From the IMG/VR virus record IMGVR_UViG_3300010383_000006: a stretch of DNA of 20,000 bases. One strand, given 5' to 3'. Shown here piece after piece: positions 2,635 to 20,000 of the stretch; position 1 is the stretch's first letter, and each line of letters starts with the position of its first letter. The position numbers were made by a program, and so were the translations under genes. Below the pieces are notes generated by a model that searched no databases, was not told the DNA's origin, and was given only the letters and a program-made list of their open reading frames with translations. Source of the stretch: an uncultured virus (IMG/VR IMGVR_UViG_3300010383_000006) (taxonomy: Duplodnaviria; Heunggongvirae; Uroviricota; Caudoviricetes).

Positions 2635-3093
2635 ATGAGTATCGACCTGCCGATGCGGAAGCGCCAAGGCCGCCCCGGCGAGGTCGGCCTATTCCTCGAG
2701 ACCCCCGTGTTTGATGATGATTTTGCCAACATCAAAATGGGGGCCGAGGTCCAAGTGAAGGTGACCCAGCCGCGCAGCCTCCCGCAGCACAAATTCGCCT
2801 GGGCACTCGCGAGCAAACTGGCCGAAGCCTACGATCACGCCATCAGCAAAGACGACATGATGGACATGCTGCTGGTCGAGGCGCGGCACTACCGCAAGGT
2901 CTGGGATCCGTTGCGCAAGCGGGTCGAACTGAAACCAAAGCCTACCAATTTCGCGGCGATGGATGGCGTCGCTTACACGCGCCTGCTCAAGCGCATCACC
3001 TACGTGGCCACCACCGTATTCGTCCCGGGGTTGCCCGAATCCGATCTCAAGGCCGAGATCGAGGCCATGCTGGCCCCAACCGGAGATTTCTGA
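2635..3093 (+). CDS. DUF1367/NinB(Orf)-like recombination accessory protein
   Basis: 152 aa. 'VKVTQPRSLPQHKFAWAL' and 'PKPTNFAAMD' resemble the PR(N/S)xxxHxxxxAL and (S/T)xxFxxMD motifs of DUF1367/NinB-like proteins. Directly downstream of recT with a GGGAG RBS. Confidence 0.65.
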   Translation: MSIDLPMRKRQGRPGEVGLFLETPVFDDDFANIKMGAEVQVKVTQPRSLPQHKFAWALASKLAEAYDHAISKDDMMDMLLVEARHYRKVWDPLRKRVELKPKPTNFAAMDGVAYTRLLKRITYVATTVFVPGLPESDLKAEIEAMLAPTGDF

Positions 3094-4838
3094 TGACCTT
3101 TCCCGTTGCCCGCCCGATGCTGGATGACCGCCTCGCCATTGTTGGCATCTCCGGCTCCGGCAAGACTTACGCCGCTTCCACCGCCGTCGAACTCATTCTC
3201 AAATCGAAATCGCGCGCCATCATCGTCGACCCCCTCGGGGTGTGGTGGGGTCTGCGCCTGCGCACCGACGGCATCACGCCGTCGATTTTCAACGTGGTGA
3301 TTTTCGGCGGTCCCCACGGCGATCTGCCGATCAACGAGCACTCCGGTGCGCTGATCGGGGAAGCGGTTGCGGGCATGGCCGAGTCCTGCGTCCTCGATCT
3401 CAGCCAGTTGGGCACCAAGGCGGCCGAGCGGCGGTTCATGCTGGCGTTCCTCACCGCTCTGTATCGCAAGACCACGGGCGAGCCGGTCCATTTGGTGGTG
3501 GATGAGGCCGACATGTTCGCGCCGCAGCGGCTGATGGACAAGGAAGGCGACGCCGCCAAGTTGCTCGGCATGATGGAGACGGTGGTGCGCCGCGGCCGGG
3601 TCAAGGGCTTCATCCCGTGGCTGATCACCCAGCGGCCAGCGGTGTTGTCCAAGGACGTTCTGAGTCAAGCCGACGGCCTGCTGGCGTTCAAGATGACCTC
3701 ATCGCAGGACCGGAGCGCGATCGGCGGCTGGATCGAAGGCCAGGCCGATCAGCAGCAGGGCAAAGCCATCCTTGCGTCCCTGCCGACCCTTGAACTCGGA
3801 CAAGGCGTCGTCTGGCTGCCGGGGCACGGCATCCTCGAGACAGCGCGATTCCCCACCAAGACCACCTATGATTCGTCGCGCACTCCGAAGCGCGGCGAGA
3901 CGCGCCACAGCGCCAACCTGCAGCCTTTGAACCTCGACAAGTTGCGCGAGCGGCTGGTGAAGGTGACGGTCGAGCAGGCCCAGAACGATCCGAAGGCACT
4001 CCGCGCCGAGGTCGCCGCCCTCAAGGGGGAAATTGCGAAATTGCGCAATTCGGCAAACTCCACCCCGGTGATCGACAAAAAGGCGATCGAGAAGGCGCGG
4101 CAAGAAAGTTATGCGGCAGGCATCGCGTCCGGCCGCTCCCACATCCGGGGCGTGTTGGGCGATTTCTGGCGGCAGGTCGACGCTCTCCATGAGAAATTTT
4201 CAAAAGAGGTCGATCGCCTGTGCGATCTGGCTCACGACGAAAGCTACAAGGCCACCAAATCGAACCCGGTCTCGCCAGCGGCACCCAAGCAACCCGCTTC
4301 TGCACCGGCTATCCCTGCCCCCCCCCGACCGTCGGCGGCGAGCGACGGTTATTCGGCTCCCCAGCAGCGCGTGCTCGCGTCGCTGATGTTCTGGCTGTCC
4401 ACCGGGGAGGCGGCGCCGACCCGCGAACAGGTCGCGGCGGTGGCGGGCTACGCCCCGGGCAGCGGCAATTTCAACAATATCCTCGGCTCGCTCAAAAGCC
4501 TCGACGCCGTGAGTTATCCAACCCCGGGCCGCGTCGAGTGCTTGGTGCAATACGGCCAGGCTCCCTCCCTCGCGGAGGCCCGCACCACGCTGCTGGATAA
4601 GGTGCTCGGCGGTCCTCATCGCAAGATTTTGTTGGCGATGAAAGACCTCCCCGCCCCGGCCAAGCGCGACGACATCGCACAGGAAAGCGGCTACGCCGCC
4701 GGATCGGGCAATTTCAACAATCTGCTCGGCAAGCTGCGCACCCTGTGCGTGATCGACTATCCCCAGCAAGGCTACGCCGAGATCACGGCGTGGGCCAACC
4801 ANNNNNNNNNNGGAAACGGAAATGTATATCGTCGTTGA
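3093..4838 (+). CDS. HerA/FtsK-superfamily (DUF87-type) P-loop ATPase with coiled coil and two C-terminal winged-helix-like repeats; 3' end uncertain because of the N-gap at 4802-4811
   Basis: Walker A 'GISGSGKT', Walker B 'LVVDEAD', arginine-finger-like 'RRGRVKG' and 'ITQRPA'. TGATG coupling to the upstream gene. Confidence 0.88.
   Translation: MTFPVARPMLDDRLAIVGISGSGKTYAASTAVELILKSKSRAIIVDPLGVWWGLRLRTDGITPSIFNVVIFGGPHGDLPINEHSGALIGEAVAGMAESCVLDLSQLGTKAAERRFMLAFLTALYRKTTGEPVHLVVDEADMFAPQRLMDKEGDAAKLLGMMETVVRRGRVKGFIPWLITQRPAVLSKDVLSQADGLLAFKMTSSQDRSAIGGWIEGQADQQQGKAILASLPTLELGQGVVWLPGHGILETARFPTKTTYDSSRTPKRGETRHSANLQPLNLDKLRERLVKVTVEQAQNDPKALRAEVAALKGEIAKLRNSANSTPVIDKKAIEKARQESYAAGIASGRSHIRGVLGDFWRQVDALHEKFSKEVDRLCDLAHDESYKATKSNPVSPAAPKQPASAPAIPAPPRPSAASDGYSAPQQRVLASLMFWLSTGEAAPTREQVAAVAGYAPGSGNFNNILGSLKSLDAVSYPTPGRVECLVQYGQAPSLAEARTTLLDKVLGGPHRKILLAMKDLPAPAKRDDIAQESGYAAGSGNFNNLLGKLRTLCVIDYPQQGYAEITAWANXXXXGNGNVYRR
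4802..4811. other. Assembly gap (10 N)
   Basis: Run of n. The true stop of the ATPase gene may lie in or near it. Confidence 0.99.
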
Positions 4839-5442
4839 TACTGAAAGCACCGGCCTGTTCGATTACCGCGCGCCGGCCGACGCGCCCCACCAACCCCGCA
4901 TGGCCGAGATCGCCATCCTGTTCGCCAACGCCGACCTCGAGGTCGAGCGCGAATACCGCGCGCTGATCAAGCCCGATGGCTGGGTCATGCCGCCGGAGGT
5001 CACCGAACTCCATGGCCTGACCCAAGAGATGCTGATGGAAAAGGGCGTCCCGGTGCTCGAGGCCCTGACCGTCTACAACGAGGCGATTGCCGAGGGTCGG
5101 GTGATGGCGGCGCACAACGCCCAGCACGACGCCAAGATGCTCCGCGGCGAACTGCGGCGCGCCGGATTGCCGGACCAGTTCGAGGACGCTCCGAATCTGT
5201 GCACGATGCGGACCCTCACCGACATCTGCCAGATTCCCTACGCCAACGGCCGCAAGGGCTACAAATTCCCGAAGCTGTCGGAAGCCTGCGCGTTCTTCGG
5301 CATCGAGCAGGCGGCGCAGCACAGCGCCTACAGCGACGCCATGGACTGCCTGCAACTCATGCGCCGGATGAAACAGGTCGGCGCGCTGCCCGAGGCCAAG
5401 GTGCATTACGCGAAAGCGCCTCCGGCCGGAAAGGCGGTGTGA
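4822..5442 (+). CDS. DEDDh 3'-5' exonuclease (DnaQ/epsilon-like)
   Basis: ExoI 'VVDTESTG', ExoII 'AHNAQHD', ExoIII 'HSAYSDA', plus 'CTM' and 'PKLSEAC' segments. Confidence 0.93.
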   Translation: MYIVVDTESTGLFDYRAPADAPHQPRMAEIAILFANADLEVEREYRALIKPDGWVMPPEVTELHGLTQEMLMEKGVPVLEALTVYNEAIAEGRVMAAHNAQHDAKMLRGELRRAGLPDQFEDAPNLCTMRTLTDICQIPYANGRKGYKFPKLSEACAFFGIEQAAQHSAYSDAMDCLQLMRRMKQVGALPEAKVHYAKAPPAGKAV

Positions 5443-8410: not shown

Positions 8411-8755
8411 TTAGGCACCTTTGGCGATGGCGTTGATGGCGGCCGCAGTCCCCGGGGCCGCAGCGATCTTGTTCTGCGCCGGATCCACGACGATCGCGGC
8501 GAGGGTTTTGTTGGCCTGGGCGTTGACCTCGAGGCGCTCGACGCCGGGCATCGCCAGCACGCCCTTGACCTGCGCGCTCTGGCCCGTGAGCACCACCAGC
8601 ACCGCCGACACCAGCGAGTTCGCGAGGCTGGCGATCGAGACGATGGCCTTGGCAGTACCGGGTCCGAACAGGTCGGTGAGTTGGGTGACTGAGCCGACGA
8701 TGACGCCGAGCACGGCGGAAATGATCGCGATAACCTGGGTGCCGTTGAGGTTCAT
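8411..8755 (-). CDS. Putative holin (about 2 TM, 114 aa); start reassigned to ATG 8755
   Basis: ATGA overlap with the endolysin stop. Hydrophobic 'VIAIISAVLGVIVGSV' and 'IVSIASLANSLVSAVLVVL'. Confidence 0.65.
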   Translation of the reverse strand: MNLNGTQVIAIISAVLGVIVGSVTQLTDLFGPGTAKAIVSIASLANSLVSAVLVVLTGQSAQVKGVLAMPGVERLEVNAQANKTLAAIVVDPAQNKIAAAPGTAAAINAIAKGA

Positions 8756-9576
8756 GGTGCCCCCTTCAATGCGGTGCGCGTGAGAGGTCCAGCGATGCCG
8801 TCCACCGCCAAGCCCTTGAGTTTCTGGAAAGACCTCACAGCGGCGCGCGTGAGATTGCCAATGATCCCGTCGACTTTCAGTTTGGCGCCGTGAGCGTTCA
8901 ACCGCGCCTGTAGCCACTTCGTCGACGTCAATTCCTCGGCCGTAAGATCGCCTGTCTCGGCCTCTTGGGAGGTCGGCGGGACCACAACGTGCTCGCCACC
9001 TTCTCCCTGTTGAGCGTTCGCCATGTACTCGACGACATCCCGAACGAATCGCTCCTTGTTGAGATTTTTACCCGGGCAAGTGCGATGTGTCGATTTCAGG
9101 TCCTCTTTGTGGAAGTGAATCCCGCTCACGCCCTTGACGTATTTGGCGGGGTCGAGACCGAGGCGCAGGTGCAGTTCTCCGGTGAGGGCGACCAGCGCAG
9201 CCTCACTCAAGGTCCCCTCGAACTGTTCGCGCTCGAACTCGCCCACGGTCTCGATGCCGATGGCGACTCCGTTCCATGAGGGGGAGTGGGTGCCGCGGAC
9301 GTTGAACGGCGCACCGAGGCCGATCCGGCCATCCGGGCCGACAAAGGCGTGCGGCATCGAGGCCCAGCCGAGCCCGGCATAGTAGGCGGCGAGGTTTTTC
9401 AGCCACTGCTCGAACGTCGGTTTGCCGGCCGCCTTCCAGCGGTTGAACGTCGCGATGTCCGGGATGCTGGTATTGTGAATTTCGACAAAACGGGGACGAA
9501 ACACCCCGTTGAATTCCGTCGCGTCCAGAACGCTGCGAATCTGCGGAATGGTGATCACCCGACCGTCGAGTTTCAT
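8752..9576 (-). CDS. Endolysin: N-acetylmuramoyl-L-alanine amidase (Amidase_2-type) with C-terminal peptidoglycan-binding domain
   Basis: Zn-ligand motifs 'EIHNT', 'HFHKE' and 'TCPG'; 'HSPSWNGVAIGIE'. PG_binding_1-like 'WLQARLN...VDGIIGNLTRAAVRSFQ...VDGIAGPLT'. GAGGGG RBS. Confidence 0.92.
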   Translation of the reverse strand: MKLDGRVITIPQIRSVLDATEFNGVFRPRFVEIHNTSIPDIATFNRWKAAGKPTFEQWLKNLAAYYAGLGWASMPHAFVGPDGRIGLGAPFNVRGTHSPSWNGVAIGIETVGEFEREQFEGTLSEAALVALTGELHLRLGLDPAKYVKGVSGIHFHKEDLKSTHRTCPGKNLNKERFVRDVVEYMANAQQGEGGEHVVVPPTSQEAETGDLTAEELTSTKWLQARLNAHGAKLKVDGIIGNLTRAAVRSFQKLKGLAVDGIAGPLTRTALKGAP

Positions 9577-9607: not shown

Positions 9608-12600
9608 CTATTGCTGCCCCAACCCTTGGGGCTGATCCTGATTCTGATCGGCGCGGGCTGGCAACGAACCGCCCCACCCCGTGGTGTCGATATGCAGGCG
9701 CGGAATACCGGTCTCCTGACCTGCGTTCGCGAGGCGATCGGCCAGCGCGCGCATCCCGTCCGCGACCTTCTGGTTGCTGACCATGATCCGCAGCCCTTGA
9801 GCGAGTTTGCGCGGATCGTCGGAGGTGAGCAGATCGGCCACCCGGGCGGCGGTGGCGGAATCGACCTTGCCGATGAGTTTGCGCGCCCCGGCCGCCATCT
9901 CGCTGGCGAGCGCGCGCCGGGCACCAGCAGCCCCGGCAGCGCCGGCCACGGCCCCTTTCCAATCGCCGTCGAGGTAGCCGCCGAGCGCGCCCCCGGCCAG
10001 ACCCGCCTCGATCAGTTGCCGCGCCGTCGTTGAGTTGCCCATCGCCTTGCGGGCGCCGTCCATCACCGCCTCGAGGGTCATGCGGGCTTGCAGCTTGCGC
10101 AGGCCAGCGTCCCCGAACAGGACCCGCGCCATCTCACGCTCATTCGGGGAGTTGAACATCGCCTTGGTGATGTCGCGGCTGTCGCGGAAGCCGCCGATCA
10201 CCCGACCGGCCCAGTCCGAGGCGAAGCCCTCGCGGAATAGGTCTTTCTCTTCCGGCGACATCTTACGCATCAGGCCCGCGACCACCTGCGGGTCCACGCG
10301 CTTGCCCGCGAGTTGACGCCCGGCCTCGAGCGCATCGCGCTCTCCGAAGAACTGTGCCGCGATCCCGCGCGCCTGCCCATATTCCGGCACCGCCTCGTCC
10401 AGTTTGCCGCGCAGCACCTTCGACCAGGCGTTGCCATCAGCCCCCATCTTGTCGAGGTTCTTTTTCACCACGTCCCAGAATTGCAGGTTGGGCGTGAAAT
10501 TCGGATCGGTCAGCGTCACCGTGCCGTCCTTGTTGAACTGGAACGGATTCACCGGAGGCTTGAGACCCAGCTTGGCCGCCTCGTTGCGGCCGTTCACGGT
10601 GGCCATGCGAATCGCCTGCCCGACCACCGGGGCCTGCGCCATCTGGGCGAACTCATCGTCCCACATGCCCTGCGCGCCGGGCTGCGCGAACGCCTTGCGG
10701 TAGGCCGGGATGCGCGCGACGTCGTACTCGGCCACCAACTGGTCGGCGGTCTTGTGAGCATTGGCGCCGCCGCTGACAAGGCTGCGGACATCGTGCGCGA
10801 CGCGCTCGGCCTGCCCCTCGAACCGGTCTCCGAACGCCTTTTCCAGCGTGCCCCGGGCCTCCGGGGAGGTGTTGGCTGCCGAGCGCAGCAGCGATTGCAC
10901 CCGGGTGCCCCCGAAATCGGCCAAGGTCACCGGCTCGCCGGCCGCTTTCGCCGCCTGCCACTGCGCCGGGGTGAGGCCGGTCATCTTGCCCGCCGCGATG
11001 TCAGCCGAATCGGCCTCGGCCGCGGTGAACAGACGCCGCGCCGCTTCCGCCTCAGATCCCCGGGTGAGACCGACCACCGAATTCCANNNNNNNNNNNNNN
11101 NNNNNNNNNNNGGTCGGCCGGATCGAGGGTGCGCTTGAGGAAATACCCCGCGCCTTCGGTCAGGGGAGCCGCCAGGGCGCCGCCAGCGCCGCCCGCCACC
11201 GCGCCCGCACCAGCGCCCACCGCGCGGGACGCCGCATCCTCGCCCTCGCCAGCGCCCGCCAGCGCCCCATATTCCGAGCCGACCAGCGCGCCCTGCCGCA
11301 TCCGGGCGCCCAGCGTGACCCCGCGCGCCGCCATGCCGCCCGGCAGCGCCATCATCGACGGCACTGCGCCTGCGAACTCGCCGCCCATGTAGGCGTAGGG
11401 GTGCTGCTCCTTGGCCAGCTTGTTGGCCTCGCGCTCGCGCTTCGCTCCGGCCTCATAGGCTTCCTCGGCCCCGGGCGCGCCGGTCCAGTAACGGTACGCG
11501 CCCTTCATCACCGAGATCGGGTCATTCCACTCATCCGGCTTGACGCCGCCCGCCTCACCGATGCCGCGCAATTCATCACCGAAACCGAACGTCGCGCCCT
11601 GATAGGCGCCGCGGGCCGCCGCGCTCATTGCACCGGCATCCGGCTTCACTTCCTCGAACGGCTGGTTCGGATCGAACGCAGGTTCGACCACATCGAACGG
11701 CTTGTCAGGATCGAACGTCGGAGCGCCGGCCATATCCACTCTCCCGCCTTGCGCGCGAAAATCGTCGCTCTGAATAAACGCCCAATCGTCCGGCGTCATC
11801 ATCGAGTTGGTCTGCTCAAGGTAGTCGTTGAGGATGCGGCTGCGGTCGTTATTCCACGCCGCGCGCACTTCCCCGACGTGGCGATCCCATGATCCCTTGG
11901 CCGGGTCGGGCCGCTTGAAGTCCCAGCCCTTGGCCGATTTGCCGGTGGGGATGCCCTGCCCGCGCTTTTTGATCGCCTGAATTTTGTAGTTCGGATCGTT
12001 GAGCGGGTCCCAGCGCATCGCGGACAGCGGGGTGCCGAACACCGCCGAGTCGTCGAACAGCGCGAACCCCTTGCTGCGCGCCTGGTCTTTCAGCGACTGC
12101 GGGATGTCGATGTACCAGACCGGCTCCTTGGCCTGCTGCAATTTGATCGGAGGATCGGTGCGGTTCTCATTGATCCGCGCCAGCCACTGATCGGCGGCGG
12201 CGCGATTTTGTGCGGGCCAGTCCGCAATGACGTGCCCACGGTTGTCGACGGCTTCCCATTTTCCGGGCAGATGACCCTTCTGCGCCTTCACCCCGTACTG
12301 TTTCGCGATCTTCTCGATCGATTTGGGAATCATCTGGTCATAGAACCCGCGCATTCCCTCGCCGCCGATCTTGAGGTCGGCATTGCGCAGGATGCTCACG
12401 CCCCTATCGTTCGGTTCGGTTTTCAGCAGCTTCTCGGCCGCTTCCTTGCCGATGTGATCAGCCAGTTTGGCCTCGGGCACCACGCTGGTGATGTGCTTCA
12501 CGCCGTTTTTGTCGACCGCTTCCAGATAGCCGGATTTCTTGTCGTAATTGATCTGGTCGATGGTCTTGCTCAGATCGTAGCGCGCCGCCTGCGCGTCGCC

Positions 12601-15600
12601 CGGCGTCCACGACAGCCGGTCATAGCCGCCCTCGGCCGCTTCACGCAGCGCGCGCTTGAGCGCCAGTTCGTGCCACGTCTTTTTGAATGGGGCATCGGGG
12701 ACGCCGGTATCCTTCTTGCTGGACGCCCGGTCATTCAACTCCCGCCAGCGGGCCTGCTGCTCAGGAGACGCGGCTGAGAAGTCCTCTCCGATCACGTCCC
12801 GCTCGGCAATCTCGGCGTTCGAGAGCGGCTTCTTTGTGTTGTACCCCTTGTCGCGCCCCTGCTGGTGCCAGTCCGACTGGATTTCCTCGAGGTGGAGCGA
12901 GCGCGCCTGACGCGGCTTGGGTTCGGGCGGCAGGCTGGCGCGCAACTGATCCTCCTGCGCGCGCAACTCCTGCAGCCGGTTCTGCAACGGGATGAGTTCG
13001 GGCAAGTCCTCGCCGTACAGCGCCTGTTCAAGCAGCTTGTTGGTTTCTGGACCTGAGACCTTCCCGCTGCGGTAATCCTCCATGATCTGATCGCGCTTCG
13101 CCTGCCGGAGCGGCTTCGCGGTCGCATTGATCTCGCGCGCCACGTCGGCCTGCTGGGCGCGGATCGAATCCAGTTGCCCCTGTGCCGCCCGGCGCGCCTC
13201 GATCGCCGCCGTTTCCTCCGGCGTGAACGGCAGCGCCATCGAGCGGTCGTTCATCCGCATGTGCGCCACGATGTTCGGCTCATCCCAGTGGGAGGATTTG
13301 TAATTGTCTCCGCTCACCACGTCGCGATTCTGTTCCATCCACCGCGAATATGCCGCGCGAGCCTCCGGGCCATCCTGCATCCCCTGCTGTTCGGCCCATT
13401 GGGCAAACGTCTTGGGACCAGAGGCGCGACGATCCGGCAGCGTCAGTAGCATCTCGCGGTAGTTCTCGCCGCCCGGCAGTTGGTACTGGTGATAGCGCGT
13501 CGGCGGGGGACCAGCCTCCAACTCATTGGCACGCTTGTCGGCCAACGCGAGAAAGCGATCAGACTGCGGATCAAGATCAGGGTTCTCGCGGGTGATTTCC
13601 TCAGTGGCGCGGTCCCAAACCGTGTCGGGATCATGTCCCTTGCCGCCCTTCCACACCTCGTTGAGGTGCACCTGGTTGTCGGCCAGATGCTCGGCGATCT
13701 CCTGCTTGGTGACGGGCTGGCCTTTGCGCTCGGCAAGGAAGTCGGCGAGGCCGGTCCACTGCAATTCCTCGGCCTTCACGCCCGGCTTGTTCGACAGCGT
13801 GCCCAGCCACTGGTCGCCGGTCATCTTGGGCTGCTTGATGTCGCCCACCGCACGCTCGACTGCGGAAAAGAACGGGGGGGCACGCTCCAATGCCGCGAGC
13901 GGCGCGCCGACGTTGCCGGAATCCGAATAAAGCACGCGCTCGACATGGGATCCGTTAGGCACCACCGCCGACACCGACCCGGCATCCTCACCGACGTTTC
14001 GATAATAATAGCCGCGCTTTGCCGCTCCGCGCTTTAATTGACCACGCATGTATCCGTTCGCGCGAAAATCCTCATGCGGTGCATTGCGCTGGTTCGACAT
14101 CCGCCCGGTGATCCGGTACGGCTCGACCGACGGCTTCACATCCATCGGCATCACTGAGCCGTCGGGATAACGCACTTCTTTGGTCGGATAATAATCATGA
14201 AGCGGGGCGTCGACATTGTATCCTGTGCGGTTGTATCCGCGCGGGTCCATCCGCTTCAAAGTTTCTTGGCCTGCCAGCAGAGTGCGACCATATTCCGCGT
14301 CGCCGCTCCACCCGCGGCCGTGCGCCGGAATGCCGATCCTCGCCTCAAGCGCCTCCTGCGCCGCTTTCCTTGTCCCGAGATGCAGCCCACTCTCACCCCC
14401 TCGCAAATCGCCGCTGGCGGACCCGTGCCACCACACATTCGGGTCACCCTCAAGCGGCGCTAGACGCTGCGCCCTTTCCAGCGCGGACAGCGGCGCGCCC
14501 GGCGCGGCGGCGTCCTCAAGCAGCAGTCCCGACTTGCCGAGGTTCTTGGGATCGAACCGCGCGAACTGCGAGCGCACCTGCTCGGGACCGAACGGAATTG
14601 CCACGGTGTGCCCCATGCCGCCCATCTTGCCGCCGGTATCAAGGATGCCGTCATAGCCCAGCGAGCGCAGCGCGTTGGTGATCTTGTCGGGGATCGAGGT
14701 CCAAACGTAGGAATTCTCGCCACTGGCATAATCCTGCTTGGCCTGCTCGATCCATTCCTTCGGCGTATAGCGGTGGTTTTTGTCCCACATATCGGCGCCG
14801 AATTCGGCCTTGCGCGAGCGGTCACGCTTGAACATTTCCTCGAGCCGCGGCAGCACCCTCTCAGTCATCACCTGCGTGTTGGTGGTGTCGAGCGGGTTGG
14901 TCATGCGGATGCGCGCCGGCGTGACGCCGCGCGCCTCGGTCCACGGCGCGGTGGTTTCGCTGATCTGATGGGGGTAGCCCGCGAGCCGGTAAACCTCCGA
15001 CAACTGGCTAGGATCATCCACAAACCGCCCGCTGTCGTTCCAGAGTTCGCGCAATGCAGCAAGATGGTTGCCGCGCGCCTCGTTGTTCAAAACCCAGTCG
15101 TAGTGGCTTCCGGCCCCGGTGGCATTCACGCCCTCGGGATGAAGGGTAAGAGGACCTTCGGCCATGTCGATATTCTCATGGCCGATGCGCCGCGCCTTGG
15201 CGGCAATTTCCGCGCGCTGCTCCGGCGACAGAAACCGCCACGTATCCTCGACCGGAATCCGGGTGCGCGAGGCCCAACCCAGATCCTTGGGGTGGATAGT
15301 GAAGTAGTCCGCCACGCGGCCCTCATCCACCAGCGACGTGTCGGGCTTTTTGCCCATCGCGTAGGAGGATGCCATTTCGGGATTGTCGGTGAAGTACGGC
15401 ATCGGCCCCGACGTCGCGCGCTTGGGGTCGATCTTTCCGCTCTCGGTAAAACGGTCCATGCGCAGACCGCCGTGATACCACGGTCCCTCGAATCCCTGTT
15501 CGGCGGCACGGGCCATGCGCGAGGCTTCATCCATCGGCAGCGCGCCCGCGCGCCGCACTGGCCCGGCCCCGAGCGACGCCACCGAACTGTCGGCCGCGCC

Positions 15601-17171
15601 GAACGCGGTGCCGCCGGCCATGCCAGCGGTGTCCTGCGCCCGCGCCAGCAATTCCTGCTGATCGAGCAGGCGCCGGGCCTCATCCTCATCGGACCACTGC
15701 CCCGGCACCGCCGGTTTGGTGTCGAACTTGCCGGCCGCGACATCGCCCGGTAGCGACGCGCCGCTGCGGATCATTTTTTCCGGCCACGTCTGATAGCGGT
15801 CCTCGCCGCCGGTCCCGAACAGCCGGTTGCCGAACATGGTGCCGGGCGAGAATTCCATCTCCCCCAATCGGGTGAGGAAATTGCCGTCGCCACCCAGATC
15901 CACCACGTCGCCGCCCTCGGCATAACCCACCCGACCGCCGGACGCGCGCCCGCGCGGCATCTGCGCGTTACAGCAGGCATGGGGATGAACAGCGACATCG
16001 AGGTCGAACTGGTTGGGAAACTCGCGGTTCAATTCTTCATACAGCCCGCACTTGCCCGCGTCGAAATACCGGCAGTTCTCGCACCGCACCGGGTGATCGA
16101 CATAGCCGACCTCGGCCTTGGTCATGTTGGCGATCGGGTGGCCGAGCGGCGCGCCCTTGATGTAGAACCCGCAACTGCCGTTTTCGGGATCGACCTTGGC
16201 GCCGCCCATGATCGCGCAGTGCTCATGGCCGAACCGGCAGGTGCCGCACTGGGCAAACCGTCCGCTGGTGCTGTCGAGATACAGGAAGGCGTCGCGGCCC
16301 ATCTTGGTGCGCCGATCCGGCACGCGGCCGCCCGCAGCGCGGGCGTACAGCCGCTCCTGATCTTCGTGCAGTTGGCGCGCATAGGCGTCGGAATTTTCCG
16401 GGGTATCAAACACCCCGAGATGCTTGCCGCTCATTCTGTAAAGCCGCACGGCGTCGGCATCGGAAAGTACCGCGCCATCTGGGCTCACGGTCGGTAGCAA
16501 CACCTCGCGGCCGTCCATATTCACACCGATCGACCGCACAGTGCTGATTGAGCCATCCGGGTTGTGCACCACCGGCCGAGAATTGAGATCGATGTTGCCG
16601 GGTTCGACCATGCCGGGCACTCGACCGCCGCTGGCACGGTGCAACGGTTTGGTGGTGTCGCCGGTTTTCAGCCAGTCCTTGAACTGGTCGACCGTCATTT
16701 CGGTGAGCGCACCGAGGCGTTGGTCGGCTTTGCCGTCCGAGAACGCCTTGCGGTAGGTGGCGAGCACATGACGCGGCGACGCGAACCCGAAAAACACCTT
16801 GTGCTCATCCCACCGTCCCGTGTCGGCGTCGCGCTGGTCGACCACGAACACCTTGGCGCTCTTGAGGTGGGGTCCCACATAGACGTCGACATGATCACCG
16901 TCCGCGCCCTCGGTGCGGCGGATATAGCCNNNNNNNNNNNNNNNNNNNNNNNNNNNNTATAGCCATAATGCGCGGGCAGGCGGCATTTCCACGGCTTGCC
17001 GTCCGGCCCTTTCCCCGAGCGCGTCGCGCCGCAGGCGTTCTCGATCACCACATCAAGGCCGTGCGCCTTGACGCGGCCCTTGCGGTAATTGCCCGCCGCC
17101 TTCTGGCCCTCGGTCGGCGCGGCGTTGGTGCGCCGGGCCTGATCGTCGAGATGCTTGCGCAGATCCATCAC
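9608..17171 (-). CDS. Giant (~2,500 aa) polyvalent, probably virion-ejected protein: InPase-like, GNIDL domain, tandem HiPIP-like, two ART-like, EEIQSDW domain, C-terminal ejection-protein-like region. Split into ORFs 16695-17171, 10981-16992 and 9608-11077 by two N-gaps
   Basis: Both frame changes coincide with N runs. At 16930-16957 the flanks share 'tatagcc'; collapsing the gap (35 nt) restores frame and the motif HYGYIRRTEGADGDHVD. At 11087-11111 both frames are open up to the gap. The start (GTG 17171 or ATG 17168) overlaps the upstream TGA. Confidence 0.82.
11087..11111. other. Assembly gap (25 N) inside the giant gene
   Basis: Run of n; its nominal length is out of frame with the flanking open frames. 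Confidence 0.99.
16930..16957. other. Assembly gap (28 N), probably spurious because the flanks overlap by 7 nt
   Basis: Left flank ends ...gatatagcc; right flank begins tatagccataatg. Confidence 0.95.
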
Positions 17172-19999
17172 GGCACCGCGTGATATTGGCCGTCCGCCCC
17201 CAATTCAAAGAGACGGCCGTTCTGCCGCACCTGCTTGGGCTTGGTGGCAGTGTCATGCCCGCTCACCGCCTCCAATTCTTTCTTGGTGTGGGGGTCGAGA
17301 AAATCGTCGAAATTCTTGAGTTTCGTGGTGGCTTCATATTGTCGGCGCAAGCCCTTCATCTGACCGGCCATCAGTTTCTTGAACTCAGTGGTAATGCCGA
17401 GGAGCTGTGCCGGACTCTGCGAATTGGCAGCGCGCCGCGCCATGTCGTCACGGTCATGGAGCGCGGTCTGTCCACCAACCACGGCCTTGGCGATTTCGGC
17501 GCTGACCACCTGCTTGATCGAATCGAAATTGGTGGTCACAGGATTGCCCGTTTGCTGTTTTGCATAATTCACAAGCCTGTTCAGCGCGGGGATGTCACCG
17601 TTTTGCAGCGCGCGGGCAGCGTCCTCAAGGGTGTTGAGATGGTCGATCGCGACGTTGAGCGAGCGCACCGTGCGGCCCTCGGGGCCTCCCGCGAAATTGC
17701 TCACCGCGCGGTTTTTGCCTGTGAACTGGGTCTGGTCGTAATCGGGGTACGCTTGCATGACGTAGCCCAGAATGCGTTCGCGATGACCGCCACGCACCGA
17801 CAGCGACGTCAGCGGGGTCTTGTAGGTCCCGATCGCCTTGACCGTGCCGGCCAGTTGCGGATTGCGCGCCGCCAGTTCGGCGAGGAAGGCGTCACCGGTC
17901 AGTCCCGGATCGATCGGCCCGTTGCTCTTGCCCCCGGCTCCTGGTGCTCCGACATTGGGTGCCGCGACGCCCTGCGTCGTCATGTTGTTCGGGTTGATCC
18001 AGCCGTATTGCTTGATCCCGGTCAGGGGGTCCTCGCCGATCACGCCCCACGTCGGCTTGAACTCCTTGCCTTCGGTCGCGCGGTTGTGACGCTCGGTTTC
18101 AGTCTGCTTGCGAGTTTCCAAAGCCAGTTTCTCGGCCGCATCCTTGGCTTTCTGTGCCAACTCCTGCGCGGTTTTCGCCTGCTCTTGCTCACCCTTTTTA
18201 ACCCCAGCATAGGTTCCGAATCCGGCCAGACCGCCCTCGCCGATGGCGTTGCCGAGATTCGGCGAACGCGACGCCATCATGCCCAGGCCGCCCGCGATCA
18301 GCGCGGCGCGCTCGGCGTTGGTCCACGGAATCAGGATGCCGCTGCGCTCATCGCCGGTCGGGACCGGGCCCACGCCGGGCAGACGGGACTGTGCCGACAG
18401 ATCGGTCGGTGCCCCGGGAGGGACATCGGCCGGAACATCGGGGGCATCATCCTGCGCCACCACCGGGGGGGAGATCGGCCCGACCCCCGGCTTGCCGTCC
18501 GGCCCCGGCAGCGGGTTGGCCTCGCGCCACTCCTGCGTCGCTTCGGCCGACGGCATATGGATCGGATCGAACGGATTGATCGCATCACCGACATCGGTGG
18601 GCGGCTGGAACGGGTCATAGCCCGGGGTGGTGTTATCGCCACCCCAGCGCTCGCCGAATGGTGTGCCGCCGGCGGCAAAGCCCGCGACGCCGCCGCCGCG
18701 GCGGAAACCGGTCCCATAATCCGAGGCGTCGAGCCCGGGCAACGGCTGGCTGCTGCTGCCGCCCCATTCACTGTTGAACACGTTGCCGCCGCCATAGGCT
18801 TCGCCGCTGTACTTGCCCGCGAGGCCCGCCAGACCGGTCGCCGCCTTCATGATGCCCTCGGCGCTGACCCCCGAGCCACCATCACGCGACGAACCCGGCG
18901 AGATCGGCGACGGCGCGCCGCGCCCCGCCGTGATGTTCATCTTCGGCACCCAGCCCTGCGCGGCATCGAACGGCACGCCTGCAACGCCGCCGCCGCTGTC
19001 GAAATGCCCGACCACCCCGCCATGGGCGCGGGCCGCCTCATCGGTGGCACCCTTCACGTCGATGAATTTCAGGCCCGCGACGCCGGGGGCGACCGATTCG
19101 GGATGGCGCTGCTCGACCTCCTGCGCGATCGGCCCGATGTGCCATTCCGGTGATCCCTTGTAACGGTACCGGTAGATGTTCTGGCCGTCGTTCATCTTGC
19201 CGATGTGTTCGATGTCCTCCTTGGCGCGCTCATCCGACAAAAGGCCGAGCGCCGAAACGCCGAGCCCGAGCCACTGCGCCGTCGAGTTCGGCTGCGGCTG
19301 GGTCGAGGTGCCGTAGGACGTGCCACCGAGTTGCGACCCCACGCCGGTCTGCAAGCCCGCCAGCCACTGCAAGGTCTGGAACGGATAGGCCTGTTGCTGC
19401 ATGTACTGACCGTACTGCGCGGTGTCGGCCGCCTGCTGGGTCTGCTGCTGCAGCGTACCCGCCCCGAGTTGCGCGGTCGCCCCCGACAGCGCCGCGCTCT
19501 GTCCGGCGACGCCGAGATTGCCCAGCGAATACGCCGCCGCCTGCTTGCGCTGCTGATCGGCCTGCGCCGCCGCCAGCGCCTGCTGATAGCCCTGCGAGCG
19601 CAGATTGGCGAGCACCGGGGCCTGCGCCAGTTGCTGCTGGCCCGCAAGGTTGGCCTGCGCCACGCCCAGCCGATTGCCGCCCAGCGCGCCCTGCGCCGCC
19701 GCCTGGCTCAACACACCCTGCTGCGCCTGCTGGTTCTGGTTGTTGAACTGTGCCTGCGTCGCGTCGATCACGCTCTGGGTGTAGGGATCCTGATACGCCG
19801 CGATCTGCTCGGGGGAAATCGGATTGGCGGCATCGGTCGCCAGCCCCGCCGCCTGCTGAATGTAAGGCTGCGCGAATCCGGCGTTGGCGTTGATGTTGCC
19901 GATCGCGGTTTGCTGCTGCGCGTTGATCGGCGCGGTCAGTTCGCCGCTGTAGGCCTGATACGGCGTGTTGGCGACCGTCGCGGCGCGCGAAATGAGAGA
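17168..19999 (-). CDS. Large putative DNA ejection/pilot protein: Gln/Ala-rich N-terminal region, internal Peptidase_S74 (intramolecular chaperone autocleavage) domain, Gly/Pro-rich linker, helical C-terminal ejection-like region; 5'-truncated by the window edge
   Basis: Frame is open from 19999 (SLISRAATVANTPYQAYSGELTAP...YQDPYTQSVID), so the 19771 start is not the real one. 'LLSDERAKEDIEHIG...IYRYRYKG...GPIAQEVE...PESV' at 19055-19237 is an S74-like motif. Confidence 0.85.
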   Translation of the reverse strand, partial: SLISRAATVANTPYQAYSGELTAPINAQQQTAIGNINANAGFAQPYIQQAAGLATDAANPISPEQIAAYQDPYTQSVIDATQAQFNNQNQQAQQGVLSQAAAQGALGGNRLGVAQANLAGQQQLAQAPVLANLRSQGYQQALAAAQADQQRKQAAAYSLGNLGVAGQSAALSGATAQLGAGTLQQQTQQAADTAQYGQYMQQQAYPFQTLQWLAGLQTGVGSQLGGTSYGTSTQPQPNSTAQWLGLGVSALGLLSDERAKEDIEHIGKMNDGQNIYRYRYKGSPEWHIGPIAQEVEQRHPESVAPGVAGLKFIDVKGATDEAARAHGGVVGHFDSGGGVAGVPFDAAQGWVPKMNITAGRGAPSPISPGSSRDGGSGVSAEGIMKAATGLAGLAGKYSGEAYGGGNVFNSEWGGSSSQPLPGLDASDYGTGFRRGGGVAGFAAGGTPFGERWGGDNTTPGYDPFQPPTDVGDAINPFDPIHMPSAEATQEWREANPLPGPDGKPGVGPISPPVVAQDDAPDVPADVPPGAPTDLSAQSRLPGVGPVPTGDERSGILIPWTNAERAALIAGGLGMMASRSPNLGNAIGEGGLAGFGTYAGVKKGEQEQAKTAQELAQKAKDAAEKLALETRKQTETERHNRATEGKEFKPTWGVIGEDPLTGIKQYGWINPNNMTTQGVAAPNVGAPGAGGKSNGPIDPGLTGDAFLAELAARNPQLAGTVKAIGTYKTPLTSLSVRGGHRERILGYVMQAYPDYDQTQFTGKNRAVSNFAGGPEGRTVRSLNVAIDHLNTLEDAARALQNGDIPALNRLVNYAKQQTGNPVTTNFDSIKQVVSAEIAKAVVGGQTALHDRDDMARRAANSQSPAQLLGITTEFKKLMAGQMKGLRRQYEATTKLKNFDDFLDPHTKKELEAVSGHDTATKPKQVRQNGRLFELGADGQYHAVP

Positions 20000-20000
20000 A

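Follow-up and report, generated by a model that had tools for sequence, protein, structure and literature searches.

The window analysed here is a 20,000-nucleotide stretch of DNA from an uncultured virus of the Caudoviricetes (IMG/VR record IMGVR_UViG_3300010383_000006). Its minus strand carries a giant gene for a protein of ~2,500 amino acids (aa), which is built of discrete modules joined by short recurring peptides of two kinds, M1 and M2, and ends in a conserved body. The modules follow in the order InPase, M1, GNIDL, M1, Cys-rich, M1, helical unit with ART1, M2, "ART2", M2, EEIQSDW domain, M2, 86-aa unit, M1, body. With its modules set on the conserved body, the product is very probably a phage polyvalent protein. 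An earlier reading of the window, made from its letters only (the sequence-only reading), had placed the gene between another ejection-like gene and an endolysin, and a phrog_4287 protein is indeed found upstream and an endolysin with Amidase_2 and PG_binding_1 domains downstream. The features are collected in Table 1; the module coordinates of the sequence-only reading were correct within a few codons.

Table 1. Positions of the giant gene, its modules and joints, and the adjacent genes in the window (pLDDT, predicted local distance difference test).
Feature	Position	Strand	Evidence and remarks
Upstream neighbour, ejection protein, open at window end	17168..20000	-	phrog_4287 "DNA ejection protein", E 1.3e-27
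Peptidase_S74 segment in the middle of the upstream ejection protein	19094-19237	-	SDERAK signature
Giant gene (~2,500 aa)	9608..17171	-	three pieces around two N runs
Pieces of the giant gene as read	16958-17171, 11112-16929, 9608-11086	-	flanks of N runs
InPase domain, PF18823, split by the 28-base N run	16666..17108	-	E 1.8e-15 before and 3.1e-27 after the run
M1 copy 1, HRASGGRV	16618..16641	-	16 homology endpoints within 20 aa; pLDDT 40-70
GNIDL domain, ~92 aa	16342..16617	-	pLDDT ~90
M1 copy 2, ARAAGGRV	16321..16344	-	motif scan
Cys-rich module, 9 Cys	15949..16320	-	zf_Tbcl E 0.036, non-significant; pLDDT below 57
M1 copy 3, GRASGGRV then GYAEGG	15928..15951	-	motif scan; alignment with P0004, P0010, P0011
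118-aa helical-hairpin unit, joined to ART1 without motif	15547..15900	-	two long helices, pLDDT 74-87
ART1, ART-PolyVal-like with large insert	14524..15540	-	PF18760 E 2.6e-5, 25.4 bits, below 31.2 cut-off
M2 copy 1, EDAAAPGAPLSALER, GLLL before it	14470..14517	-	75 homology endpoints within 20 aa
"ART2", 176-aa module	13933..14460	-	4 viral loci, 51-59% identity
M2 copy 2, SDSGNVGAPLAALERA, VLY before it	13879..13926	-	60 endpoints within 20 aa; at domain edge: short strand, low-pLDDT stretch, short helix
EEIQSDW domain, 606 aa	12061..13878	-	pLDDT ~90
M2 copy 3, DDSAVFGTPLSAMRWD, ALF before it	12007..12054	-	23 endpoints within 20 aa
86-aa unit	11758..12015	-	5/120 homologs
M1 copy 4, FRAQGGRV, immediately before body	11737..11760	-	position kept in relatives
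Conserved body, ~700 aa, phrog_5880	9608..11733	-	contains the 25-base N run 11087-11111
Gly/Ala-rich hydrophobic stretch in body	11158-11223	-	Kyte-Doolittle mean 1.35
Downstream neighbour, endolysin	8752..9576	-	Amidase_2 + PG_binding_1

In the sequence as given, the gene appears as three minus-strand open reading frames (ORFs) in three frames (16695-17171, 10981-16992 and 9608-11077), between which lie runs of N of 28 bases (16930-16957) and 25 bases (11087-11111), neither length being divisible by three. Translation would begin at GTG 17171 or ATG 17168, overlapping the stop codon of the upstream gene. Both breaks fall inside single conserved domains or families: the first run lies between matches to positions 2-51 and 50-135 of the Pfam InPase profile, the second between matches to positions 5-195 and 241-653 of phrog_5880. 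The homologs P0002 (2,006 aa), P0003 (2,418 aa), P0004 (1,951 aa) and P0010 (2,103 aa) are each encoded in one ORF, running from an N-terminal InPase to a C-terminal body. Since their alignments cross both places with 0-1 residue missing, and since the same 7 bases are repeated in both flanks of the first run, the N runs look like gap fillers of arbitrary length. Outside the N runs no stop codon interrupts over 7.5 kb.

Two points weigh against a single gene. The frames differ across each N run, the bases beneath the runs being unread, and the nearest relative is called as two ORFs, P0001 (1,270 aa) and P0007 (1,067 aa), with the break inside the EEIQSDW domain, where there is no motif. This relative is 96% identical over the first 820 residues and has no ART2; the P0001 and P0007 calls come from two and three contigs, respectively. 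Three distinct genes, or one pseudogene in which the N runs hide true frameshifts, would agree with the three frames and with the divided relative. Against them stand the position of both breaks within conserved families, the passage of four full-length homologs through both places and the 7.5 kb without stops; such a broken gene is hardly credible. One gene of ~2,500 aa is the strongly supported best reading of the three ORFs, as the sequence-only reading had proposed with its one reconstructable frame, and both the homologs and the two profiles span the N runs.

The polypeptide unites unrelated effector-type domains, namely InPase and an ART-PolyVal-like domain, together with the confidently folded GNIDL and EEIQSDW domains. 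The InPase label is solid as a family assignment: the two parts score 57.5 and 95.5 bits against the Pfam cut-off of 26.8, and the PDB relative is the InPase fused to portal gp19 (9b41). This is the hallmark InPase of phage-type polyvalent proteins, the beta-hairpin-less form being judged solely by the family match. The GNIDL domain is found in 52 viral loci at 48-73% identity, and its tblastn matches are podophage proteins annotated as DNA transfer, IVP-C-like/internal virion or minor structural proteins; it is the only module matching proteins annotated as DNA transfer or internal virion. A search of solved structures (Foldseek, PDB, E<=1e-3) gave no match for it. In other phages (loci L102-L153) the GNIDL domain often adjoins segments resembling lytic transglycosylase or other cell-wall enzymes, and these neighbours suggest a role at the envelope rather than in the cytoplasm.

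Homologs of the giant protein (P numbers) were collected at E<=1e-3, which gave 145 proteins; counts over 120 refer to the best 120 of these 145. The Cys-rich module is found in 1/120 homologs. It had been described as "tandem Cys4"; the nine cysteines are present, but the treble-clef zinc match is non-significant and the module did not fold. All 11 cysteines of the protein lie in this module (9) and in InPase (2), none being found in the other ~2,200 residues. The 118-aa helical unit (19/120 homologs) is followed by ART1 (69/120), which matches PF18760 at profile positions 53-132 only, in 5/5 aligned members, and is a probable ART-PolyVal domain by this sub-cut-off match. The two ART-like modules of the sequence-only reading differ in support. 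ART1 has its weak profile match, but ART2 has no Pfam match, aligns to ART1 with an hhalign probability of 0.5%, and forms no ART1/ART2 repeat in a blastp self-comparison; the lead for it comes from the Atlas language model (ART-PolyVal-bearing clusters, score 0.90, family on 20% of members, 13/30 matches). PDB profile searches with the ART1 and ART2 alignments gave nothing below E 0.8. No confident fold was predicted for the Cys-rich module, for ART2 or for the region of M2 copy 1 (pLDDT below 50-57). Of the proposed combination of InPase and ART domains in a polyvalent protein, InPase scores above the Pfam cut-off; the ART part is a candidate that scores below it (25.4 vs 31.2 bits).

The EEIQSDW domain is present in 80 viral loci and in 61-62/120 homologs. 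Foldseek against the PDB gave nothing at E<=1e-3, there is no Pfam GNAT match, and the Atlas search returned nothing above 0.82. With an exhaustive aligner (VIA-align), GNAT-fold chains recur (6edw, 8g8k, 5l7j, 6g96, 6gtp and 4ua3; Z 8.1-9.9 over 111-155 residues), tRNA-acetylating toxins among them, and a GNAT-like nature of the predicted model may be taken as a lead only. A long, variable coiled-coil hairpin is inserted in this domain (12907-13230, minus strand) in 9/120 homologs, with 52 and 49 homology endpoints at its ends; it is a module-like indel without a junction motif. The 86-aa unit has no Pfam match.

The junction peptides are present at seven of the eight module borders, the exception being the border between the 118-aa unit and ART1. 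M1 (RA[SAQ]GGRV) occurs in four copies, at residues 97-104, 196-203, 327-334 and 1724-1731 of the middle piece; M2 (G[AT]PL[SA]A[LM], following a hydrophobic strand and D-[SA]) occurs in three, at residues 805-820, 1002-1017 and 1626-1641. In 20,000 shuffles of the protein the expected numbers are 0.00105 for M1 and 0.0004 for M2, and no shuffle had more than one copy, so that the two recurring motifs reported by the sequence-only reading are found far above chance. The position of M1 copy 4 before the body is kept in P0002, P0003, P0007, P0010, P0011, P0054, P0122, P0125, P0129 and P0140. In the predicted structures the copies lie at the margins of confidently folded domains, where pLDDT is low or falling, and M2 is modelled as a short terminal strand followed by disorder and then by a short helix, its first part being the last strand of the preceding domain. 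The comparison of predicted domain borders with the motifs had been set beforehand as a check on the joints, and the borders coincide with them. The copies within the gene use different synonymous codons, and therefore conservation acts on the peptide rather than on the DNA. M1 and M2 are conserved at the module joints as peptides, not as DNA; a DNA-level recombination signal was considered as the cause of the conservation and rejected, because the codons differ among the copies.

Relatives gain and lose modules exactly at these motifs. In P0001 the missing ART2 leaves a gap exactly between two M2 copies; P0004, P0010 and P0011 have neither GNIDL nor the Cys-rich module, the junction lies inside M1, and their single M1 after InPase aligns to copies 1 and 3 of the window. 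M1 follows an N-terminal InPase and precedes an internal or C-terminal one (P0005, P0049, P0054, P0120), while M2 follows at least four unrelated modules. The body occurs in 9/120 homologs, each with a different cargo set. In total, 181/445 homology endpoints lie within 20 aa of a motif (18.6% expected), the endpoints of related proteins not being independent of one another. The comparison strongly supports M1 and M2 as the points where relatives differ by whole modules, and agrees with the earlier view of the linkers as module-swapping points.

The minimal fused form among the relatives comprises InPase, M1 and the body (~880 aa), and there is strong support for the view that the giant protein represents this form with ~1,560 aa of cargo inserted. 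When the last 492 residues were searched against 1.84 billion representatives, 1,726 matched at E<=1e-3 and 599 at E<=1e-30. Among the best 150, 96 are stand-alone proteins (~640-780 aa), 30 have one extra N-terminal module, 9 a long N-terminal extension, 9 a C-terminal extension of 300 aa or more, and 6 are fragments. InPase is found in 12/150, and in 11 of these 12 a GG-type peptide follows it within ~12 residues. By homology, the body can with strong support be assigned to a large family of ~700-aa late proteins that are mostly stand-alone and come from short-tailed-type phages. One stand-alone homolog, of 702 aa and with no M1 at its N-terminus, lies in the structural module of Rhizobium phage RHph_I1_23. 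Scans with the body recovered from metagenome contigs a single 69-kb record and nothing else, from viral contigs one relevant locus, and from genome contigs only a weak irrelevant match. The body contains weak Gly-zipper-like stretches (Pfam Gly-zipper_YMGG, E 0.027).

The complete relative G001 (69 kb, with direct terminal repeats) has the gene order of the window. Its genes include those for TerL, for a Mu gpT-like capsid protein and for a portal, and neither a tape measure nor a sheath was detected among the ORFs scanned. The giant gene thus stands at the end of a late operon, beside a phrog_4287 ejection protein, in a group whose complete member lacks these tail-tube genes among the scanned ORFs, as do podophage ejection proteins. 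The "ejection-like" label given to the body by the sequence-only reading holds for this context, but phrog_5880 itself carries no annotated function, and the body has no relative of solved structure.

M1-like peptides are not confined to the giant protein. In G001 they are present in three other late proteins, of 232 aa, of 163 aa and in the 982-aa ejection protein. The 232-aa protein, basic and proline-rich and encoded just after the portal (L007:10275-10973, minus strand), contains four RAxGGR[VI]-like peptides; the 163-aa protein (L006:10628-11119, minus strand) contains one copy behind a leader of ~30 residues, RRADGGRVHVGPLAG. At the C-terminus of P0015 the module of the 163-aa protein again stands behind the motif, as a fusion. 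A loose M1 pattern gives 27 matches in 19/146 proteins of the body family, compared with 3.9 in shuffles (maximum 11 in 300). Ten of the 27 lie at or after the end of the body and 5 immediately ahead of its start; 3 fall within the final 45 residues, 8 at other places in the extensions and 1 inside the body. GG-type peptides bracket the conserved body. The description of the motifs as linkers suits the seven borders, but GG-type copies also occur at extreme C-termini and, in other proteins, after short N-terminal leaders. The presence of the GG-type peptide around a ~700-aa family and in other late proteins indicates a shared reader rather than a spacer.

The joints of one protein often share a flavour: "..AAGH" in P0003 and P0010, "GAP.AALE/Q" three times in P0006, and "GGSVFDKM" three times in P0134. 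The same holds for both sides of a module, with "RFALP" in L047 and the FQ-type in L023, L056 and L068. Flavours shared between joints, taken with the divergence of codons, favour a co-evolving reader over homogenisation of the DNA. In other lineages (L010-L089) the joint before and after EEIQSDW has the form h-[FYL]-Q-[SGA], for example NILFQG or ELFQS, and resembles 3C-type protease sites. Further module ends in other viral loci are IRFS, ILHQ and ILMQ.

It may be supposed that the joints are passive, acting only as hinges or insulators and as in-frame sites of recombination, retained by descent, in a chain that is neither read nor cut. The gain and loss of modules at the motifs would fit this, and in many polyvalent proteins the modules close with a hydrophobic "terminator" strand of a general kind (LLED, ILFQ, IRFS, ILHQ), just as the first part of M2 is predicted to be the final strand of the preceding domain. 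However, the codon differences among copies argue against DNA-level homogenisation and mean that recombination would have little DNA identity to work on; conservation of a hinge over 8-20 residues in unrelated modules is rare; and the copies found at extreme termini or in other late proteins have nothing to join. A purely passive role is distinctly improbable.

The giant protein has the recurring short motif at module borders that is expected of a polyprotein, and M1, M2 or both may be cleavage sites, at which a phage, host or self protease would cut in the capsid or after injection and release six to eight effectors. The motifs are short, conserved as peptides, situated in flexible segments and changing together within a lineage, which fits a co-evolving protease. 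M1 stands behind N-terminal leaders of ~25-35 residues in P0054 and two G001 proteins; in P0133, P0134 and P0183 it stands ~10-15 residues before the C-terminus, and both placements resemble a pro-peptide. Iyer et al. 2017 (PMC5512222) make the case that polyvalent proteins must be processed, with P1 DdrB, processed ahead of packaging, as a cited example, and in giant phages a prohead protease cuts ejection proteins at a motif (PMC5694885, PMC10052503). The article of Iyer et al., however, gives N4 virion RNA polymerase as packaged unprocessed (PMC5512222). The giant protein matches no peptidase family at E<=0.01 over its full length or at E<=1 module by module, and HExxH is absent from it. 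No protease came to light in the window; in G001 a search for Peptidase_S78 was negative, and PHROGs and Pfam over 40 ORF entries turned up no protease either, a weak negative, as many G001 ORFs are unscanned or matchless. M1 is long, with ~14 conserved positions and two GG, unlike a simple site, and the 232-aa protein of G001 with its four copies would fall to pieces. Cleavage at the joints is possible and, on these grounds, somewhat unlikely.

Most probably among the three roles, the junction peptides serve as an uncut handle or joint. This is preferred tentatively, as somewhat likelier than a cleavage site or a passive joint. The giant protein would be loaded into the capsid through its body, as would the neighbouring ejection protein, and would leave through the tail with the DNA, so that the enzyme modules would be carried into the cell. 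The junction peptides would be read by a partner as handles or address tags by which the chain is loaded, ordered or threaded, probably without being cut. Since each module ends and begins with the same peptide, the joints would also keep swaps in frame. The explanation as a whole, in which a polyvalent protein is packaged and ejected and a partner reads its joint peptides, has about an even chance of being right. A variant in which the junction peptides form a lineage-private code must be called unlikely: they would act as cut or dock signals for one factor of phage or host origin, the double-stranded DNA phage would be packing a true polyprotein from which up to eight effectors are set free, and several other small proteins would be directed to the capsid by the same tag.

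Several observations weigh against the preferred explanation of partner-read joints in an ejected protein. No partner that would read the handle was identified. Strict M1 and M2 are limited to this lineage. Joints outside it, counted just upstream of EEIQSDW in 56 non-redundant viral loci, are of M2-type in 11/56 (background mean 1.0, maximum 4) and of FQ-type in 20/56 (background mean 3.6, maximum 9), with regular expressions that were picked after inspection of the data. Enrichment of the hhFQ motif over whole ORFs was rejected, the stricter FQ expression giving 21 matches and the shuffles 18.6, and so was the idea that M1 flanks GNIDL everywhere, no M1 being beside GNIDL in the 34 viral loci that were read out of 52. 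Away from the motifs lie 264/445 homology endpoints, which gather at the motif-less border between the unit and ART1, near residue 1550 and where the coiled-coil insert begins and ends. As for the body, it has one clearly hydrophobic stretch only and no relative among solved structures (PDB sequence search); phrog_5880 has no known function, and no experiment places any of its members in virions or shows ejection.

Phage-type polyvalent proteins were described by Iyer, Burroughs, Anand, de Souza and Aravind in 2017, who predicted them to be packaged and delivered with the DNA (PMC5512222). The window protein is like them in being a giant late-operon protein with InPase, a candidate ART-PolyVal-like module and uncharacterised modules that is mosaic among relatives; its late, virion-gene neighbourhood, with identical gene order in G001, is likewise theirs. 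Unlike the proteins of that article, it has no zincin-like metallopeptidase (MPTase), the processing hub proposed there (frequent, not obligatory), and it possesses the C-terminal phrog_5880 body and the conserved junction peptides. In the main text of PMC5512222 the words linker, boundar-, interdomain and inter-domain are absent. No description of junction motifs in polyvalent proteins was found in the literature searches, with PMC5512222 represented by its main text, and the junction peptides appear to be undescribed in print. A polyvalent ejection-type protein is a known kind; the joint peptides are the new, testable part.

Another giant polyvalent protein of a short-tailed phage is phi24B gp47 (2,811 aa), which was found in virions by mass spectrometry and proposed to be an ejection protein (bioRxiv 10.64898/2026.04.10.717836). 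The window protein is similar in kind. The domains of gp47 are different (LPD5, LPD1, LPD38 and a MuF-C metallopeptidase), and the passages of the preprint that describe it mention no junction motifs. N4 virion RNA polymerase and P1 DarB are also giant proteins that are packaged in the head and injected, the N4 enzyme in unprocessed form (PMC5512222). Unlike them, the window protein contains no polymerase, helicase or methylase. No sequence relation to N4 virion RNA polymerase or DarB was found; phrog_10089, labelled "DarB-like", is matched through InPase only.

In T4, the internal proteins and Alt bear a capsid-targeting sequence (CTS). Alt is injected into the cell (PMC5512222), and in T4 and in phages of the phiKZ/SPN3US type enzymes, an ADP-ribosyltransferase among them, are packed into the head and injected, with a short peptide as address, cut site or both; the window protein would be similar if the proposed route is correct. 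In contrast to the window, those phages encode a cognate head protease (none was found here), and they use separate small proteins and other motifs. Polymorphic toxins, with the demarcation motifs VENN of CdiA and PxxxxDPxGL of Rhs, and MuF-fused phage toxins combine a constant delivery part and variable cargo, with a short conserved peptide at the swap point and one cargo at one end. Compared with these, the window protein has up to eight modules, two kinds of joint, and copies of the joint peptide in other proteins of the virion operon.

The remainder of the window is divided between the strands. Early and recombination genes (exonuclease, RecT, NinB-like protein, ATPase, DnaQ-type exonuclease and a DnaA_C-type helix-turn-helix protein) occupy the plus strand between 254 and ~7210, and the late genes run on the minus strand from 20000 down to ~8400. 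A third N run, of 10 bases (4802-4811), is situated at the end of the ATPase gene (3093-4838), where the gene of the DnaQ-type exonuclease (4822-5442) starts. A PDB sequence search with the upstream ejection protein gave no meaningful match. Its Peptidase_S74 segment belongs to a type of intramolecular chaperone that cleaves itself, and the M1-like GG peptides RAHGGVV and RRGGGVAGFAAGG are found downstream of this segment; the protein may be self-processing. The Peptidase_S74 segment is likewise present in the 982-aa ortholog of G001. Directly after the endolysin, a small ORF with hydrophobic segments (8411-8755, minus strand, beginning MNLNG...) may encode a holin or a spanin-type lysis partner.

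Uncultured phages commonly encode giant polyvalent proteins. If the joint peptides are read by a partner or a protease, they would provide exact sites for N-terminomics and mutagenesis. Being read, they would also supply a rule by which polyvalent proteins can be parsed into modules without structure prediction, and possibly a handle for loading foreign cargo into phage particles.

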